The position numbers were made by a program, and so were the translations under genes. The notes under the pieces are model-generated. The model was given only the letters and a program-made list of their open reading frames with translations. It did no database searches and was not told where the DNA came from. A stretch of DNA of 44,446 nucleotides from sequence record OR594181; one strand, written 5' to 3'. Positions 7,187-14,278 of the stretch are shown one piece after another. Numbering within the stretch: position 1 is the first letter of the stretch; each line of letters begins with the position of its first letter. Source of the stretch: Escherichia phage vB_EcoM_SHAK7704.

Positions 7187-7397
7187 GCAAGCGGCTGTAC
7201 GCCAGAACACAGAAGAACTTATTCAATCAGGACGTGACCATAAGCAGGCTTATGCCATTGCTAAGGATGTACAACGTCGTGCCGGATTTCCCCCATATGG
7301 GGGCCGCGCTGCGGTTGGCTTGGGAATTGGGCTAGGCTGGGCCGTCTTCGACGGGTGGCCTAGAGCTTGCCGAGGTCTGCTCTTAGTGGCTGCACAA

Positions 7398-7531
7398 GGA
7401 GAACGCCTAGGAAGCGCTAGGGCACGCCTTAGTATTGGACAAGGTGATTGCCTTAGTGCAACCGCTTAGGGCTTACACAGGCCGTTTTAGGGCCATTCCT
7501 GAGCGTTTGACAAGGTGGGCGTGGGTGGGCT
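7398..7531 (+). repeat. Direct repeat copy 1 (134 bp), putative right terminal repeat
   Basis: Identical base-for-base to 7532-7665 in direct tandem. Confidence 0.7.
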
Positions 7532-7665
7532 GGAGAACGCCTAGGAAGCGCTAGGGCACGCCTTAGTATTGGACAAGGTGATTGCCTTAGTGCAACCGCT
7601 TAGGGCTTACACAGGCCGTTTTAGGGCCATTCCTGAGCGTTTGACAAGGTGGGCGTGGGTGGGCT
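7532..7665 (+). repeat. Direct repeat copy 2 (134 bp), putative left terminal repeat
   Basis: Identical to 7398-7531; followed at 7666 by ATCTGTT. Confidence 0.7.
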
Positions 7666-7716
7666 ATCTGTTCGTTTCGTTCACTCCGCTTGCGCTCCGT
7701 TCACTCGCTCACGTGT

Positions 7717-7845
7717 ACCTTAGGTTATTCCTTGATGGATGGCTTAGGTTAGCCTTAGTGGGCTGCCTTAGTTAAAGCCTTAGTGCTTAGCTTAGTATCA
7801 ACTTAGTAGTGTACCTTAGTAAGTCTTAGTGTCTTCTCTTAGTGA
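7717..7845 (+). repeat. Array of about 10 short CTTAGT-type repeats next to the terminal repeat
   Basis: ccttagg, gcttagg, ccttagt, gcttagt, acttagt, tcttagt recur every 8-15 bp. Confidence 0.6.
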
Positions 7846-8027
7846 TTGCATAGCTAAAGCTATAAGATGCAATTAGGTCGCGGTCGGTAGACCGCTAAGA
7901 GTAGGTAATAGTAATAAGATGCAGTAGGAGGAACACCAGAAACCTAGCCAACCTAGCCTATCCTAGCTCTGTATCTATTGCTTTCCTTAGTCTCACATGT
8001 TAGACAACCTATGTTTATCTTAGTAGT

Positions 8028-8043
8028 TGTGACATGTATCACA
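8028..8043 (+). promoter_or_regulatory. CRP-like site TGTGA-N6-TCACA
   Basis: tgtgacatgtatcaca matches both CRP half-sites; centred about 72 bp upstream of the predicted early start site. Confidence 0.3.
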
Positions 8044-8072
8044 TAAATAATCTATCTTAGTGAAACTTAGTG

Positions 8073-8101
8073 TTGACATAGGCAATCAACTGGTATACAT
8101 T
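8073..8101 (+). promoter_or_regulatory. Host sigma70-type early promoter
   Basis: TTGACA at 8073-8078, 17-bp spacer, TACATT at 8096-8101; about 400 bp inside the left genome end. Confidence 0.5.
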
Positions 8102-8251
8102 AGCAATCACTGAGACGGACCTAGCAAGCTGTCTCAGGTTATAAGCAGGAGAATTGATGCGTAAGCCATAGCTAGTGGATGTAGTCGCATGAAGGCTTGA
8201 GTAAGGGGCCGCTTAATACCTTCTTCCTCTGGAGACAACGCTTATAACACT

Positions 8252-8264
8252 GCTCTTTAACAAT
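8252..8264 (+). promoter_or_regulatory. Conserved early intergenic 13-mer GCTCTTTAACAAT (copy 1), candidate RNase III site
   Basis: One of five near-identical copies, each 40-70 nt upstream of an early gene start and flanked by imperfect dyads. Confidence 0.4.
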
Positions 8265-8322
8265 CTGCTTAGTGTAACCTATGTATGCCGTGGTTAATTA
8301 CTTATTGAATGAAGGATTAACT

Positions 8323-8550
8323 ATGAAAGTACAAGTAAAAGCGTACAACATGCCAGTTGATGAGATTCAGCACTTCCTCGATAAAGGTTATGACTTATGT
8401 AAGATGCGCACACCAGATAACTATGACTACTCACCTAAATATCTGCATTATATTGATCTTAAGATGGGTAAGAAGTTAGTTATTACAGGTACTGCATATA
8501 ACCGCATTATCAAAGTTCTTAAAGAGGGTGCTAATCATGACATTAAATAA
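8323..8550 (+). CDS. Early hypothetical protein
   Basis: ATG 8323 with GAAGGA RBS (track ORF starts at 8281 without RBS). Confidence 0.5.
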   Translation: MKVQVKAYNMPVDEIQHFLDKGYDLCKMRTPDNYDYSPKYLHYIDLKMGKKLVITGTAYNRIIKVLKEGANHDIK

Positions 8551-8716
8551 CCGTGAACTGTCCGTTCTCTTCACTCTGTTGTGCTACATGATTCGTAACA
8601 ACGAATTACTTACAGATGATGAGTTAGCCTTGTATCACCGCTTTCTTAACGAAGGTTGGACCGATACGGTTAATCAATACCGTAACATGATAGATGAGTT
8701 GAGGGAGGGTAGATAA
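8537..8716 (+). CDS. Early hypothetical protein
   Basis: ATG 8537 after GAGGG RBS; stop overlaps the next start. Confidence 0.45.
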   Translation: MTLNNRELSVLFTLLCYMIRNNELLTDDELALYHRFLNEGWTDTVNQYRNMIDELREGR

Positions 8717-8940
8717 TGTATCAACATGAGGTATTCTTTGAATCATCTAGCGAAGCTATTCGCTTCCACGATGATATGCTACAAGCTGGCGTAGGTGTTG
8801 ATGTACATCACTTCCTACTAGATTACGACACTGAATATCACCGAGTTACCTTAGTATCTGAGTATGACAACCAAGTCATTACTGAGTATCTAGGTAGTGA
8901 AGATTATGATTACGATGAAGTAATCACGACAAATCTCTAA
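8716..8940 (+). CDS. Early hypothetical acidic protein
   Basis: 74 aa; TAATG stop-start overlap; Asp/Glu/Tyr-rich. Confidence 0.5.
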   Translation: MYQHEVFFESSSEAIRFHDDMLQAGVGVDVHHFLLDYDTEYHRVTLVSEYDNQVITEYLGSEDYDYDEVITTNL

Positions 8941-9010
8941 ATTAACTATTGACAACCACGGCATACAAGGTTACATTAAGCATCAAGACGGCGACGTCTT
9001 TAAACATCAC

Positions 9011-9023
9011 GCTCTTTAACAAT
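9011..9023 (+). promoter_or_regulatory. Conserved 13-mer GCTCTTTAACAAT (copy 2)
   Basis: Preceded by hairpin AAGACG-gcga-CGTCTT. Confidence 0.4.
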
Positions 9024-9168
9024 AGAGATTAGGCCGGGAGTATCGGTGTGAGGGACAAGGAGGCTTTCCCACAATTAAACTGGTGGCAAAAGGATTGCCC
9101 AGCTTTATAGCCCAGTTATGGATAGCAATAGCGTAAGGATGGCAGCACACCCGCGAGTCTAATCTCTA

Positions 9169-9181
9169 GCTCTTTAACAAT
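9169..9181 (+). promoter_or_regulatory. Conserved 13-mer GCTCTTTAACAAT (copy 3)
   Basis: Upstream of the 9225 ORF. Confidence 0.4.
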
Positions 9182-9224
9182 CGGGCTAGTGCCTTGGTAG
9201 GCTAACTACTTACTAAGGTGAACT

Positions 9225-9437
9225 ATGAACTACTGCGACATCGCTCACGAATTACGCATGGAACGTGAGAAACAAGAGAAGCGGATTATCAAGAAGATGG
9301 CTGTACTGCTTGCACACTATAAGGCAGACAAACAGCCAACACATGATGAGTTCGTGGACTTCTGTAACATGTATCTTAATGTGAGTAAGGCCACTGGTTA
9401 CAGATGGCTTAAAGCACTGAATGATGGAGAATTGTAG
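9225..9437 (+). CDS. Early small protein with possible HTH-like segment
   Basis: 70 aa; AAGGTG RBS; C-terminal SKATGYRWLKAL resembles excisionase/AlpA-type DNA-binding helices. Confidence 0.5.
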   Translation: MNYCDIAHELRMEREKQEKRIIKKMAVLLAHYKADKQPTHDEFVDFCNMYLNVSKATGYRWLKALNDGEL

Positions 9438-9480
9438 CAATAAGCCAGCTTAATAGCTGGCCTATCAAGGCACTAACCTA

Positions 9481-9493
9481 GCCCTTTAACAAT
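9481..9493 (+). promoter_or_regulatory. Conserved 13-mer GCCCTTTAACAAT (copy 4) inside a bulged dyad
   Basis: Flanked by cctatcaaggcac / gtgtcttgatagg imperfect inverted repeat; preceded by hairpin GCCAGCT-taat-AGCTGGC. Confidence 0.45.
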
Positions 9494-9539
9494 CTGGTTT
9501 TGTGTCTTGATAGGCTTACTAACAGAAAGGTAAATTATC

Positions 9540-9707
9540 ATGGAAACTTTAATCGTTACCACTACAATCAACGGCGTAAGTATCAGCATAACTAAGTATT
9601 CTTCCGAAGAGTATGAAGTGAATCACGGAATAGCTGCTATGGTGTATGACAACTTGGCAGATGCCGTGGAGCATTGGATACAGTCATGTAAGGCTGCAAT
9701 TAAGTAG
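9540..9707 (+). CDS. Early hypothetical protein (55 aa)
   Basis: Not in the ORF track; AAAGG RBS; METLIVTTTINGVSISITKY... Confidence 0.4.
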   Translation: METLIVTTTINGVSISITKYSSEEYEVNHGIAAMVYDNLADAVEHWIQSCKAAIK

Positions 9708-9752
9708 GAAAGAGAAGGCTGGCACTAGCCAGCCTATCAAGGCACAAGCCAC

Positions 9753-9765
9753 GCTCTTTAACAAT
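9753..9765 (+). promoter_or_regulatory. Conserved 13-mer GCTCTTTAACAAT (copy 5)
   Basis: Preceded by hairpin GGCTGGC-acta-GCCAGCC; upstream of ocr. Confidence 0.4.
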
Positions 9766-9861
9766 ATGGGTAGTCGCTTCTTAGTCTGGATAGGTTAAAC
9801 CTAGGAGATTCTCTTGAGTCTCCTATAATGTAACCTAACTAACTAAATGAGGATTAATAAC

Positions 9862-10218
9862 ATGGCTATGTCTAATATGACTTACTCTCAGGTTTACAAC
9901 ACCGCTCATGCTGCATTAGTTGAACGTATCTGGGATGATGCTATTGATTGTATCGATAACGCACATGATGCAATCCATGAGGTGGCGGGTAGTGCTGTAC
10001 CAATCTATTATGCTGACATCTTCTCGGTGATGGCCAGTGAAGGCATCGACCACTTCTTCGAGGATTCTGGCTTAATGCCAGACACTAAGGATGTGACGGT
10101 CGTACTACAAGCCCGTATTTATGAACAACTCACCATTGATTTATGGGAACGTGTTCAAGATATGATTGATGCGTACATCGATTCCGCTGAGGATTCAGAA
10201 GAAGAGGAGGAAGAATAA
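9862..10218 (+). CDS. ocr: Ocr-like DNA-mimic anti-restriction protein (T7 gene 0.3 homolog)
   Basis: MAMSNMTY...[15 protein letters not shown]...[13 protein letters not shown]...[15 protein letters not shown] with acidic C-terminus, closely matching T7 Ocr as recalled; start at ATG 9862. Confidence 0.85.
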
Positions 10219-10324
10219 AGATGGAAAGGCAATATAACTTTATCTTCTCAGACGGTGTAACCCTGAAATGTTCCTTACGATTTGCGCAGATTCGTGAGGA
10301 AGTACTAGGAACTACATACAAGCT

Positions 10325-10342
10325 ATTTAGCTGACACTATAA
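10325..10342 (+). promoter_or_regulatory. Variant phage promoter ATTTAGCTGACACTATAA (SP6-like upstream half)
   Basis: Matches the SP6 consensus ATTTAGGTGACACTATAG except G to C at one position and A in place of the +1 G. Confidence 0.4.
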
Positions 10343-10410
10343 GAGAAGACTTAACAAGGCGTTGCTACGGTAGCGCCTGATTAAACTTTCACTTACTAGG
10401 AGTTAAGATT

Positions 10411-10638
10411 ATGGATTTAGATAGCATCATTATGGCATTTGCTCTTATTGGCTTAAGCTGGTGCTCCTATCACCTTTACCGTGAGTTCTTATTTGATAAA
10501 GCTAAACGCAAACTAAGAAAGGAAGGCGGTAATTACCTTTGTATAAGAGGTGGCTTAGTCGAATACATTGCACCTAACGGCATGGAGTGCGCCATTAACA
10601 AAGATGCATTTATAGAGACGTGGCATTACATCAAGTAG
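10411..10638 (+). CDS. Early small membrane protein
   Basis: 75 aa; N-terminal transmembrane segment IIMAFALIGLSWCSY; GGAG RBS. Confidence 0.55.
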   Translation: MDLDSIIMAFALIGLSWCSYHLYREFLFDKAKRKLRKEGGNYLCIRGGLVEYIAPNGMECAINKDAFIETWHYIK

Positions 10639-10702
10639 CTAGCCTATAGCCTACCTGTGTGGGCTATGTGATATTTACTTACCACTATATAAGGTGACTA
10701 TT

Positions 10703-11587
10703 ATGACTACTGAAAACACCCTCCTGTCTGTCCGCGAAGCTGCAACCGCTGAGATTAAGCAGCATTTGGATAATATCGGCACTTCTTACATCAAAGTAGG
10801 TGCTTGTCTGAATGAGTTACGCGGAGACTTCGAAGGTCAAAAAGAGTTCTTAGCCTATGTTGAAGCAGAGTTCGGCATCAAGAAAGCACAATGCTACAAG
10901 CTGATGAGTGTAGCCCGTGTCTTTGAAGGTGACGAACGATTCAAAGGCGTGGCTATGCGTGTAATGCTGGCGCTTGTTCCTTTCGCTGATGAGAGTATCA
11001 TCATGGAGAAGGCCGCAGAACTTGCCGCAGAGGGCAAGCTGGACACTAACGCCGTAAACGCCCTAATTGAGTCTAAGAAAGAGCCAAAGGCCGAGACGGT
11101 ACAATCTAAGGCTGAGCCAGTAAAACCGCAGGAGAACGCGGCTGAGGCCGCAGAATCACAGGAAACGCAAGCGCCGCAGGTAGTGCCGCCAATGAGTGAG
11201 CCGGACACCGACGAATCCGCACCGTGGGAGGGCGAAAGCAAGCCGGAAGCACCTAAGGCTGCGCCTCTGGACAACACTGCTAACACAGAGAACGCCGCCA
11301 TGGCTGGCCTGTTGGCACAAATTAAGGCACTGACTGAGCAATTACAGGCGGCTAACGACCGCATCGCAGCTCTAACCAGTGCACGTGAAAGCAAGAAGGC
11401 AGCCGCGCCTATGCTCCCACAATTCAAATCCAAATGTTTCTATGCTCGCTTGGGTTTGAGTGCTGAGGAGGCAGAGAAGAAAACAGCAGTGAACAAGGCA
11501 CGCCGCGAACTGGTTAAACTGGGATACGGTGAAGGCCATGAGGCATGGCCCTTAATCTCTGAGGCAGTAGAAGAATTAACTAAGTAA
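10703..11587 (+). CDS. Early hypothetical protein with Pro/Glu/Ala/Lys-rich linker
   Basis: ATG 10703 after AAGG; globular N-terminal ~120 aa, low-complexity middle, conserved-looking C-terminal ~60 aa; directly upstream of the RNAP gene. Confidence 0.6.
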   Translation: MTTENTLLSVREAATAEIKQHLDNIGTSYIKVGACLNELRGDFEGQKEFLAYVEAEFGIKKAQCYKLMSVARVFEGDERFKGVAMRVMLALVPFADESIIMEKAAELAAEGKLDTNAVNALIESKKEPKAETVQSKAEPVKPQENAAEAAESQETQAPQVVPPMSEPDTDESAPWEGESKPEAPKAAPLDNTANTENAAMAGLLAQIKALTEQLQAANDRIAALTSARESKKAAAPMLPQFKSKCFYARLGLSAEEAEKKTAVNKARRELVKLGYGEGHEAWPLISEAVEELTK

Positions 11588-11650
11588 CCTTATCGGTGGC
11601 ATCTTCTTAGGTGTCACCTATTAAGGTTTCTTTCACTAGGAGTAAACAAG

Positions 11651-14278
11651 ATGCAAGACCTACACGCTATTCAACTTCAACTTGAAGAAGAAATGTTTAA
11701 CGGCGGTATCCGTCGCTTTGAAGCGGACCAACAACGCCAGATTGCATCCGGTAATGAATCAGACACGGCATGGAATCGCCGTTTATTGTCCGAGTTAATC
11801 GCGCCAATGGCTGAAGGTATTCAGGCATACAAGGAAGAGTATGAAGGTAAAAGAGGCCGTGCACCGCGTGCATTAGCTTTCATTAACTGCGTAGAAAACG
11901 AAGTGGCAGCATATATCACGATGAAAATCGTTATGGATATGCTGAATACAGACGTTACCTTACAAGCAATCGCTATGAATGTAGCGGACCGCATCGAAGA
12001 CCAAGTACGTTTTAGCAAGCTGGAAGGTCACGCAGCTAAGTACTTTGAGAAAGTGAAGAAGTCGCTTAAGGCTAGCAAGACTAAATCTTATCGTCATGCG
12101 CACAACGTAGCGGTAGTAGCTGAGAAATCTGTTGCTGACCGTGACGCGGATTTCTCCCGTTGGGAGGCATGGCCTAAAGATACCTTGCTACAAATCGGTA
12201 TAACCTTGCTAGAAATACTGGAAAATAGTGTATTCTTCAATGGTCAGCCTGTCTTTCTTCGCACCTTGCGCACTAATGGTGGCAAGCATGGCGTTTACTA
12301 CTTACAGACCAGTGAACACGTAGGGGAATGGATTACAGCATTTAAAGAACATGTAGCGCAACTTAGCCCGGCTTATGCACCTTGCGTTATACCTCCGCGT
12401 CCGTGGGTTTCTCCTTTTAATGGCGGTTTTCACACTGAGAAGGTAGCAAGTCGTGTGCGTCTTGTTAAAGGCAGCCGTGAACACGTCCGCAAGCTGACCA
12501 AAAAGCAAATGCCAGCGGTTTACAAGGCTGTTAACGCTTTGCAGGCGACTAAATGGCAGGTTAACAAGGAAGTTTTACAGGTTGTTGAGGACGTAATACG
12601 GCTTGATTTAGGCTATGGCGTACCTTCCTTCAAACCACTCATCGACCGCGAGAACAAGCCAGCTAATCCGGTGCCGTTAGAGTTCCAGCACCTGCGAGGC
12701 CGTGAACTGAAAGAAATGTTAACACCGGAACAATGGCAAGCCTTCATCAACTGGAAAGGTGAATGCACCAAGCTGTATACCGCTGAGACTAAGCGCGGCA
12801 GCAAATCGGCGGCGACCGTCCGCATGGTAGGGCAGGCCCGTAAATACAGCCGATTTGACGCAATATACTTCGTGTATGCTCTGGACAGCCGCAGCCGCGT
12901 CTACGCGCAATCTAGCACGCTCTCTCCACAATCAAACGACTTAGGCAAGGCATTGCTCCGTTTTACCGAAGGGCAGCGTCTTGATAGCGCTGAGGCGCTT
13001 AAGTGGTTTTTGGTGAACGGGGCTAATAACTGGGGTTGGGATAAGAAAACTTTTGACGTGCGCACCGCTAACGTGCTGGATAGTGAATTTCAAGACATGT
13101 GCCGCGACATTGCAGCGGATCCGCTGACCTTCACTCAATGGGTAAATGCCGACTCCCCTTACGGCTTCCTTGCATGGTGCTTTGAATATGCGCGTTATCT
13201 GGATGCACTGGATGAAGGCACGCAAGACCAATTCATGACGCACCTCCCAGTCCATCAAGATGGTAGTTGTTCTGGTATCCAGCACTACAGTGCTATGCTA
13301 CGCGATGCAGTAGGTGCGAAAGCGGTAAACCTTAAGCCCTCTGACTCACCTCAAGATATTTATGGTGCCGTTGCGCAGGTAGTAATTCAGAAGAATTATG
13401 CATACATGAATGCAGAGGATGCGGAAACCTTCACTTCTGGCAGCGTGACTTTAACAGGTGCAGAACTTCGTAGCATGGCTAGTGCGTGGGATATGATAGG
13501 AATCACTCGCGGCCTGACCAAAAAGCCTGTAATGACACTACCTTATGGCAGCACACGTCTAACCTGCCGTGAATCAGTGATTGATTATATCGTTGATTTG
13601 GAAGAAAAAGAGGCCCAACGGGCTATTGCGGAAGGGCGTACCGCCAATCCTGTACATCCTTTTGATAATGACCGCAAAGACAGCCTGACACCTAGCGCAG
13701 CTTATAACTATATGACAGCTTTAATCTGGCCTTCTATTTCGGAAGTGGTTAAAGCTCCTATAGTGGCAATGAAAATGATTCGTCAGCTTGCACGTTTCGC
13801 AGCTAAAAGAAACGAAGGCTTAGAATATCCCTTACCAACTGGCTTCATCTTGCAACAAAAGATAATGGCTACCGATATGCTCCGCGTATCCACTTGCTTG
13901 ATGGGTGAAATCAAGATGAGTCTCCAGATTGAAACAGATGTAGTTGATGAAACGGCAATGATGGGTGCGGCTGCCCCTAACTTCGTCCATGGTCACGATG
14001 CTAGCCACCTGATTCTGACTGTATGTGACCTAGTGGATAAAGGTATTACATCCATTGCAGTCATCCATGATTCTTTCGGTACTCATGCAGGACGTACCGC
14101 AGACCTGCGGGATAGCTTAAGGGAAGAAATGGTTAAGATGTATCAAAACCATAATGCCCTGCAAAACCTGCTAGATGTGCACGAAGAGCGTTGGTTAGTA
14201 GACACCGGAATCCAAGTACCAGAGCAAGGAGAGTTTGACCTTAACGAAATCTTAGTTTCAGACTATTGTTTCGCATAA
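11651..14278 (+). CDS. Single-subunit DNA-dependent RNA polymerase (T7 gene 1-like)
   Basis: 875 aa; C-terminus ...DYCFA like T7 RNAP ...FAFA; preceded by early genes. Confidence 0.95.

Follow-up and report, generated by a model that had tools for sequence, protein, structure and literature searches.

Whether the gene at positions 9862–10218 of Escherichia phage vB_EcoM_SHAK7704 (OR594181) encodes a T7-type Ocr, and whether such a protein is out of place in an SP6-like backbone, is the question raised by this locus of the window, by which we mean the whole 44,446-nt stretch of DNA that was analysed. T7 Ocr inhibits type I restriction–modification (R-M) enzymes, with a Kd of about 50 pM for EcoKI (PMC2731889), as well as BREX (PMC7261183; PMC11317158), and it triggers PARIS (PMC10802264). 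The features of the locus are collected in Table 1.

Table 1. Features in and around the ocr locus, in coordinates of the window
Feature	Position	Strand	Description
Sigma-70-like site, same hexamers as the site at 8949	8073–8101	+	Second such site; consensus scan
Sigma-70 promoter-like site	8949–8977	+	TTGACA, 17-nt spacer, TACATT; 10 of 12 hexamer positions
Two weaker sigma-70 consensus matches	9507–9536, 9541–9568		Nearer ocr; 9 of 12
GC-rich hairpin (GGCTGGCA/TAGCCAGCC)	9716–9735	+	Precedes boxA 9754–9765 (together 9716–9765)
rrn-type boxA motif CTCTTTAACAAT	9754–9765	+	Last of five early-region copies; 97 nt 5′ of ocr ATG
Two-tier RNA hairpin, ocr 5′ leader	9792–9836	+	Between boxA and ribosome-binding site
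Shine-Dalgarno GAGGA	9849–9853	+	8 nt 5′ of ATG 9862; overlaps in-frame ATG 9847; read from sequence
ocr coding sequence	9862–10218	+	ATG 9862 to TAA 10216–10218; 357 nt, 118 codons plus stop
Gene 4 (37 aa, function unknown)	10221–10334	+	Starts 2 nt after ocr stop; PHROG 11746, E=6e-30
SP6-type phage promoter ATTTAGCTGACACTATAAGAGAAG	10325–10348	+	First of the genome; downstream of ocr and gene 4

Family assignment and genome context

The predicted product matched the Pfam family PF08684 'DNA mimic ocr' over profile positions 1–100 of 101 (E=4.3e-42; 143.1 bits against a curated cut-off of 25 bits) and the PHROG 2568 family 'ocr-like anti-restriction' (E=1e-48). When compared by phmmer with all PDB chains, it aligned without gaps, residues 1–117 to 1–117, with the T7 gene 0.3 protein (1s7z_A, E=5.4e-41), and nine further PDB entries of T7 gp0.3 were likewise matched. 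Global identity to T7 Ocr reached 75 of 117 residues (64.1%), and BLASTP gave 67% over residues 1–103 (E=1e-46). By these scores the match to the Ocr family is far above chance, and the preliminary description, which had aligned the protein with T7 Ocr along its whole length, is borne out by the Pfam, PDB and BLASTP results, the gapless alignment to T7 gp0.3 being highly significant over that full length. It is therefore very probable that this K1E-like Vectrevirus encodes at 9862–10218 an anti-restriction protein of the ocr (gene 0.3) type. Inhibition of type I R-M and BREX would be the function predicted for the window protein, from homology only. A PADLOC scan of ocr and the neighbouring small open reading frames (ORFs) returned 0 matches.

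The first 25 kb of the window are 94–96% identical to Vectrevirus genomes (PhiNW-E1, Phi100-A and vB_EcoP_D), and Vectrevirus is placed by the record taxonomy lines in the Molineuxvirinae, the SP6-like subfamily of Autographiviridae. Downstream of ocr, at 11651–14278, lies the gene for an 875-aa phage RNA polymerase (RNAP) only 32% identical to that of T7, so that the SP6-like backbone claimed in the preliminary description is right on both counts. The window holds a whole genome in permuted form, and a perfect 134-nt tandem duplication (7398–7531 and 7532–7665) is most simply read as the terminal-repeat junction. With the left end thus inferred at ~7532, ocr lies some 2.3 kb into the genome, in agreement with its positions 2063 in ACG-C91 and 2392 in fTuEco01.

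No support was obtained for the unusualness that the same description had implied, since SP6-like phages normally have an Ocr gene at this position. SP6 (NC_004831, gp5, 1637–1996) and K1-5 (NC_008152, gp3, 1575–1907) both carry a gene annotated 'ocr-like anti-restriction' at the same locus, and an Ocr homologue was found by tblastn in 571 of 50,697 phage records, the hosts of which include Escherichia, Klebsiella, Salmonella, Yersinia, Citrobacter, Proteus and others. A 721-nt region around ocr is 99% identical in fTuEco01, PhiNW-E1, the K1E isolate KY435490 and ACG-C91, and dozens of Vectrevirus records match it at 90% identity or more. The proteins of ACG-C91 and fTuEco01, annotated ocr, are 97.5–98.3% identical to the window Ocr (97–99% for the genes), and annotated relatives call the gene 'ocr protein', 'protein Ocr' or 'ocr-like anti-restriction'. 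An 'ocr-like anti-restriction' product was also reported in a 2024 preprint on K1E-like UPEC phages, and Ocr in SP6 and K1-5 has been cited since the 2004 genome paper, according to the citation given in PMC2731889, with which the RefSeq annotations agree. Phages of this group thus normally combine an SP6-like backbone with a T7-type Ocr, and the gene was known and regularly annotated before.

Allele exchange and target range

Over the first 100 codons, the window ocr and T7 0.3 share 65% DNA identity, and 36 of the 69 codons that specify the same amino acid differ synonymously. This synonymous turnover, together with the low DNA identity, indicates that the similarity is old and has been under purifying selection. 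Judging from the codon comparison, the window ocr is a gene kept by purifying selection and not a recent copy; recent horizontal transfer from T7 was rejected on the 65% identity and on synonymous change at about half of the conserved codons. A more recent exchange would be easier to argue for the ocr gene of SP6, 81% identical to that of T7 at the DNA level, a value suggesting that ocr has to some extent moved horizontally between the two subfamilies. Measured against T7, identity is twice as high for Ocr as for RNAP, an essential enzyme (64% versus 32%).

Vectrevirus carries two types of ocr allele, the T7/SP6 type found in the window and the K1F type found in K1-5, whose gp3 shares 83% identity with the Ocr protein of K1F, a T7-like phage. 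Between the window and K1-5, identity is 94% across the 146 nt upstream of ocr (100% for 9788–9847), falls to 56% in the ocr body and returns to 86–95% in the part that begins with the poly-Glu codons and takes in gene 4 and the phage promoter, the flanks of the locus being 92–95% identical. Such a sharp drop between conserved flanks indicates that the coding sequence was exchanged as a precise cassette, with its junctions at the start codon and at the acidic tail. Records under one species name carry either allele (Vectrevirus T147P1, OZ035788 versus OZ035797), and the allele swap is mosaicism of the kind usual in phages, here affecting an anti-defence locus.

At the protein level, the window Ocr has 118 residues, among them 28 D/E and 4 K/R, and ends in the tail SEEEEEE, compared with 117 residues, 34 D/E and 6 K/R in T7 Ocr; the net charge is about −24 versus −28. 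Identity to T7 Ocr is unevenly distributed, amounting to 51% in residues 1–43, 87% (45/52) in residues 44–95 and 36% in the tail. Eleven of the 34 acidic positions of T7 Ocr are lost, mostly in the first helix (D12N, E16A, D26A, D29C, D32N and D42G; numbering from Ala1), 23 are retained and 4 new ones are gained. The set F53, A57 and V77 (Ala1 numbering), said in Zavilgelsky's work to belong to the interface, is conserved in the window Ocr. So are F54 and L82 (Met1 numbering), which form part of the T7 Ocr dimer interface and whose mutation leads to a monomer or to PARIS escape (PMC10802264).

According to Roberts et al. 2012 (PMC3439906), Ocr homologues have no more than about 15 acidic residues in common, and a number well below 34 suffices; the 23 positions retained in the window Ocr exceed that conserved number. 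The section mutated in Mut3 and Mut12 (E59, D62, E64, E66, D67 and D73) is important for activity (PMC3439906), and within this 59–73 patch five of the six acidic residues are kept (E59, D62, E66, D67 and D73), E64 being replaced by F. Fourteen residues of T7 Ocr have been reported as BrxX contacts (PMC11317158); 11 of them are identical in the window Ocr, and 2 more contacts are changed from E to D. H48I and E65F are the non-conservative changes at reported contacts, and they could give the window Ocr a target spectrum or affinity differing from that of T7 Ocr. A single-sequence AlphaFold2 model of the 118-aa protein was all-helical but of low confidence (pLDDT 55.4, pTM 0.36), and we infer the Ocr fold from the 64% identity to a solved structure.

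These differences raise the leading alternative, namely an Ocr-family protein with a shifted target range, which would act mainly on BREX, on another DNA-binding defence or on a host protein such as RNA polymerase, or which would avoid PARIS. Two alleles of 49% amino-acid identity are kept at one locus in one genus and swapped between flanks of 92–95% identity, and the exchange of divergent alleles as a cassette is the pattern expected under diversifying, defence-driven selection. The loss of 11 acidic positions, the non-conservative change of two of the 14 reported BrxX contacts, and the finding that single T7 Ocr substitutions alter PARIS triggering yet keep EcoKI inhibition (PMC10802264) would fit such a shift. 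Nevertheless, the core (44–95), F54 and L82, and five sixths of the key acidic patch are conserved, Ocr activity tolerates many changes of acidic residues in mutagenesis (PMC3439906), and the PARIS escape mutations of T7 map to the very two residues, F54 and L82, that are unchanged here. We therefore regard a shifted target range as unlikely, and an Ocr with the activities of its T7 homologue as the preferred reading.

An equally doubtful extension concerns the locus itself, which might be a fixed allele-exchange slot in K1-capsule-specific members of Vectrevirus, swapping T7/SP6-type and K1F-type Ocr between T7-like and SP6-like phages, with the window allele (less acidic N-terminal helix, H48I and E65F) having a profile of defence inhibition or PARIS triggering unlike that of T7. 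The bounds of the proposed slot may be the leader hairpin and ribosome-binding site on the left, and the poly-Glu tail and the ribosome-binding site of gene 4 on the right.

Start codon and early expression

A mechanical ORF list opens the gene at ATG 9847, the first in-frame start codon after a stop, and a 123-aa product from this ATG would be the alternative to the 118-aa protein. The start region reads ...AAATGAGGATTAATAACATGGCT, in which ATG 9847 has no preceding Shine-Dalgarno sequence of its own and overlaps the GAGGA that serves ATG 9862. Met-9862 is the exact point at which homology to T7 and SP6 Ocr begins, the residues MAMSNMTY being identical in all three, and neither the Ocr of T7 nor that of SP6 has residues corresponding to the additional MRINN of the longer product. 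The upstream ATG is absent from SP6 and T7, and in K1-5 it stands 14 nt instead of 15 nt from the start, one base fewer, and so is out of frame. Moreover, the ATGAGGATTAA block is kept in K1-5, CrRp3 and Koku at a spacing to the start of 14–16 nt, which means that the frame of the upstream ATG is not kept. The curated annotations of near-identical phages, which use the start equivalent to 9862, give a 357-nt coding sequence (ACG-C91, 2063–2419; fTuEco01, 2392–2748). ATG 9862 is thus well supported by sequence as the true start, and a start at 9847 is very improbable; the placing of the upstream ATG inside the ribosome-binding site, already proposed in the preliminary description, stands on the GAGGA overlap, the homology, the annotations and the leaders of K1-5, SP6 and T7.

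An even less probable reading, that ocr is decaying or already without function and persists as a passenger of the early region, would suit the dispensability of T7 gene 0.3 in laboratory hosts that lack restriction, but the frame is intact and of full length behind a strong ribosome-binding site, the gene keeps 90–99% nucleotide identity in more than 45 Vectrevirus genomes, and relative to T7 it combines heavy synonymous turnover with a preserved protein.

The core of the SP6-type promoter, GACACTATA, occurs in 18 copies where 1.85 are expected, and on the + strand the stretch from 4249, which in the physical genome belongs to the far end, to 10328 has none. The first promoter, downstream of ocr, is conserved in K1-5, ACG-C91 and SP6. 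With no phage promoter upstream of it, ocr falls in an early segment transcribed by the host RNAP only, like the class I genes of T7. The sigma-70-like site at 8949 is the nearest strong candidate for a host promoter driving ocr; in the consensus scan, the number of sigma-70-like sites was not above that in shuffled sequence. The same TTGACA...GGTTACATTAAGCA block recurs immediately 5′ of boxA and ocr in SP6, Koku, VR702 and CrRp3.

The boxA motif, which is the E. coli rrn boxA core UGCUCUUUAACAA (PMC2724277; for an rrnB boxA oligonucleotide see PMC2176067), was found in the early region at 8253, 9012, 9170, 9482 and 9754, five copies compared with 0.4 expected, the fourth and fifth of which lie within a 44-nt repeat. 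A boxA is conserved 5′ of ocr in K1-5, SP6, Koku, VR702 and CrRp3. Compared with CrRp3, an insertion of about 740 bp (9024–9765) separates two CTCTTTAACAAT copies in the window, and small ORFs of 70 and 55 aa lie within it. The GC-rich hairpin upstream of the last boxA gives the order boxB then boxA; as an intrinsic terminator of the + strand it was rejected, its T-run being present only on the − strand.

The leader hairpin of ocr has an outer stem, AGGTTA (9792–9797) with TAACCT (9831–9836), that is invariant in 8 Molineuxvirinae, and an inner stem, TAGGAGA (9802–9808) with TCTCCTA (9819–9825), that is compensated: SP6 has TAGGAGG/CCTCCTA and Klebsiella phage Koku TAAGCTA/TAGCTTA, 3 pairs having changed in both of their bases. 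When folded, the leader (9700–9870) reached z = −4.5 versus shuffled sequences. RNase III sites precede the early genes of T7, and by analogy the hairpin could be an RNase III-type processing or stabilising element. An Rfam scan of 7300–11700 gave no credible family for the leader elements, the only hit being a sub-threshold miRNA match (E=0.11), and among the small ORFs nearby Pfam gave a single match, an HTH_23 below threshold in the 70-aa ORF at 9225.

The relatives of gene 4 include protein 4 of K1-5 and a product named 'similar to SP6 protein 4' in the ACG-C91 record. Its Shine-Dalgarno sequence is made by the poly-Glu codons of ocr (GAAGAAGAGGAGGAAGAATAAAGATG; GAGGAGGAAGAATAAAGATG), and this position inside the ocr frame suggests that ocr and gene 4 might be translationally coupled.

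Taken together, the most likely account, in which we have high confidence, is that the protein would be made early, dimerise and mimic a short bent DNA. As the leading genome end enters, host RNAP would transcribe the early region from the sigma-70 candidates at 8073 and 8949, and the rrn-type boxA motifs would probably render this transcription resistant to termination. The ocr message, with its leader hairpin and strong GAGGA ribosome-binding site, would be translated from ATG 9862 into an acidic helical protein of 118 aa, which should dimerise via the hydrophobic interface and mimic about 20–24 bp of bent B-form DNA as T7 Ocr does. It would probably also occupy the groove of BREX BrxX/PglX (PMC7261183, PMC11317158), the unmodified phage genome thereby being protected, and systems that sense Ocr, PARIS among them, would be expected to respond to it (PMC10802264). 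For this account the sequence itself gives the homology, the composition, the kept interface and key acidic residues, the place of the gene and the expression signals as motifs; we infer the dimerisation, the binding targets, the timing and identity of the promoters, and any role of boxA or the hairpin.

Comparison with known systems

As a discovery the gene carries little weight, Ocr homologues of SP6, K1-5 and K1E-like phages being already in RefSeq. To users of K1E-like therapeutic phages, it indicates a phage that is probably resistant to type I R-M and BREX and possibly vulnerable to PARIS. For understanding the expression and exchange of anti-defence genes in Autographiviridae, the dimorphic ocr alleles, the boxA motifs and the covarying leader hairpin are of modest use, and novelty is not claimed for them.

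Among other DNA mimics, ArdA resembles Ocr in being an acidic dimeric protein that blocks type I R-M enzymes, but it is a separate protein, borne on plasmids or transposons, and mimics about 42 bp versus about 24 bp (PMC2731889). BREX is reportedly not inhibited by ArdA, as stated in the part of PMC11317158 that cites Isaev et al.

Within the family, K1-5 gp3 and K1F gp0.3 belong to the same Pfam and PHROG families as the window Ocr; K1-5 gp3 has 110 aa, an N-terminus of MERNANAYY... and 49% identity to the window protein. SP6 gp5 is 61% identical to the window Ocr and is closer to T7 Ocr (77% at the amino acid and 81% at the nucleotide level). The locus is common to the window, SP6, K1E, ACG-C91 and fTuEco01, with a gene 4 homologue, the phage promoter, a gp6/gp7-like 297-aa gene and the RNAP gene.

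In T7, gene 0.3 is the very first gene after promoters A1–A3 and is followed by 0.4, whereas in the window several small early genes precede ocr and gene 4 follows it, which is unrelated to T7 0.4 and shows no similarity to gp0.4. Both ocr genes are early, transcribed by the host RNAP and located 5′ of the phage RNAP gene, and the two proteins share their family, the N-terminus MAMSNMTY, a near-identical core, an acidic tail and the residues F54 and L82.

boxA motifs and an inserted module in the early region

The early region, which holds ocr and is transcribed by the host RNA polymerase, contained five copies of the boxA motif CTCTTTAACAAT, compared with 0.4 expected by chance, and the motif is identical to the boxA antitermination core of the E. 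coli rrn operons. It is also kept upstream of ocr in K1-5, SP6, CrRp3, Koku and VR702, and could recruit NusB/NusE to the host RNA polymerase on early transcripts. The last two copies in the window lie within a 44-nt repeat (9454-9497 and 9726-9769), each following a GC-rich hairpin.

A sigma-70 promoter block (TTGACA...TACATTAAGCA) and boxA immediately precede ocr in CrRp3, SP6, Koku and VR702, whereas in the window the same block and its boxA, at 8949-9023, are set apart from the gene by an insert. This insert of ~740 bp (9024-9765, compared with positions 275-450 of the CrRp3 sequence, L010) carries two small ORFs and is placed between two boxA copies, and therefore the boxA repeats may have served as junctions for the insertion of early-gene modules.

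Features of the early region and its surroundings in the window
Feature	Position	Strand	Remarks
Perfect tandem duplication	7398-7531 and 7532-7665		134 nt
boxA motif CTCTTTAACAAT	8253-8264, 9012-9023, 9170-9181, 9482-9493, 9754-9765	+	n = 5, one with one mismatch
Small ORF in the insert	9225-9437		70 aa, weak HTH_23 match
Small ORF in the insert	9540-9707		55 aa
Two-tier hairpin in the ocr 5' leader	9792-9836	+	Adjoins the ribosome-binding site on its 5' side
Glu codons of the Ocr tail and gene 4 start	10197-10223	+	GAAGAAGAGGAGGAAGAA TAA AG ATG
First SP6-type promoter of the genome	10325-10348	+	Unusual initiation region ...CACTATAAGAG

Probable genome end, ocr leader and first phage promoter

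The tandem duplication most likely arose because the assembly is circularly permuted and brings the two copies of a direct terminal repeat together; the physical left end of the genome would then lie near 7532. Many short CTTAGT(G)-type repeats follow it at ~7700-8070. In the hairpin of the ocr leader, the outer stem (AGGTTA/TAACCT) was invariant among the eight phages compared, and the inner stem (TAGGAGA/TCTCCTA) has undergone compensated replacement in the SP6-type and Klebsiella phages. The hairpin corresponded to no Rfam family in a scan of window 7300-11700, and is possibly an RNase III-type site. The first SP6-type promoter has an A after TATA, compared with the G of the other copies in the window, and K1-5, ACG-C91 and SP6 share this variant at the corresponding position.

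Possible translational coupling and allele exchange at the ocr locus

In the tail of Ocr, the Glu codons also constitute the Shine-Dalgarno sequence of the 37-aa gene 4 (10221-10334), and this dual use suggests that ocr and gene 4 are translationally coupled. The same stretch coincides with the right-hand junction of an allele swap, in which the left junction is the start codon and the right one the poly-Glu tail. Two alleles, sharing 49% amino-acid identity, occur at the ocr locus of Vectreviruses, namely a T7/SP6-type in the window and a K1F-type in K1-5. Between the window (9862-10200) and the K1-5 sequence (L004, 1575-1890), identity was 92-95% in the flanks but only 56% across the ocr gene body. 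The T7-like phage K1F has an Ocr that shares 83% identity with the K1-5 allele.
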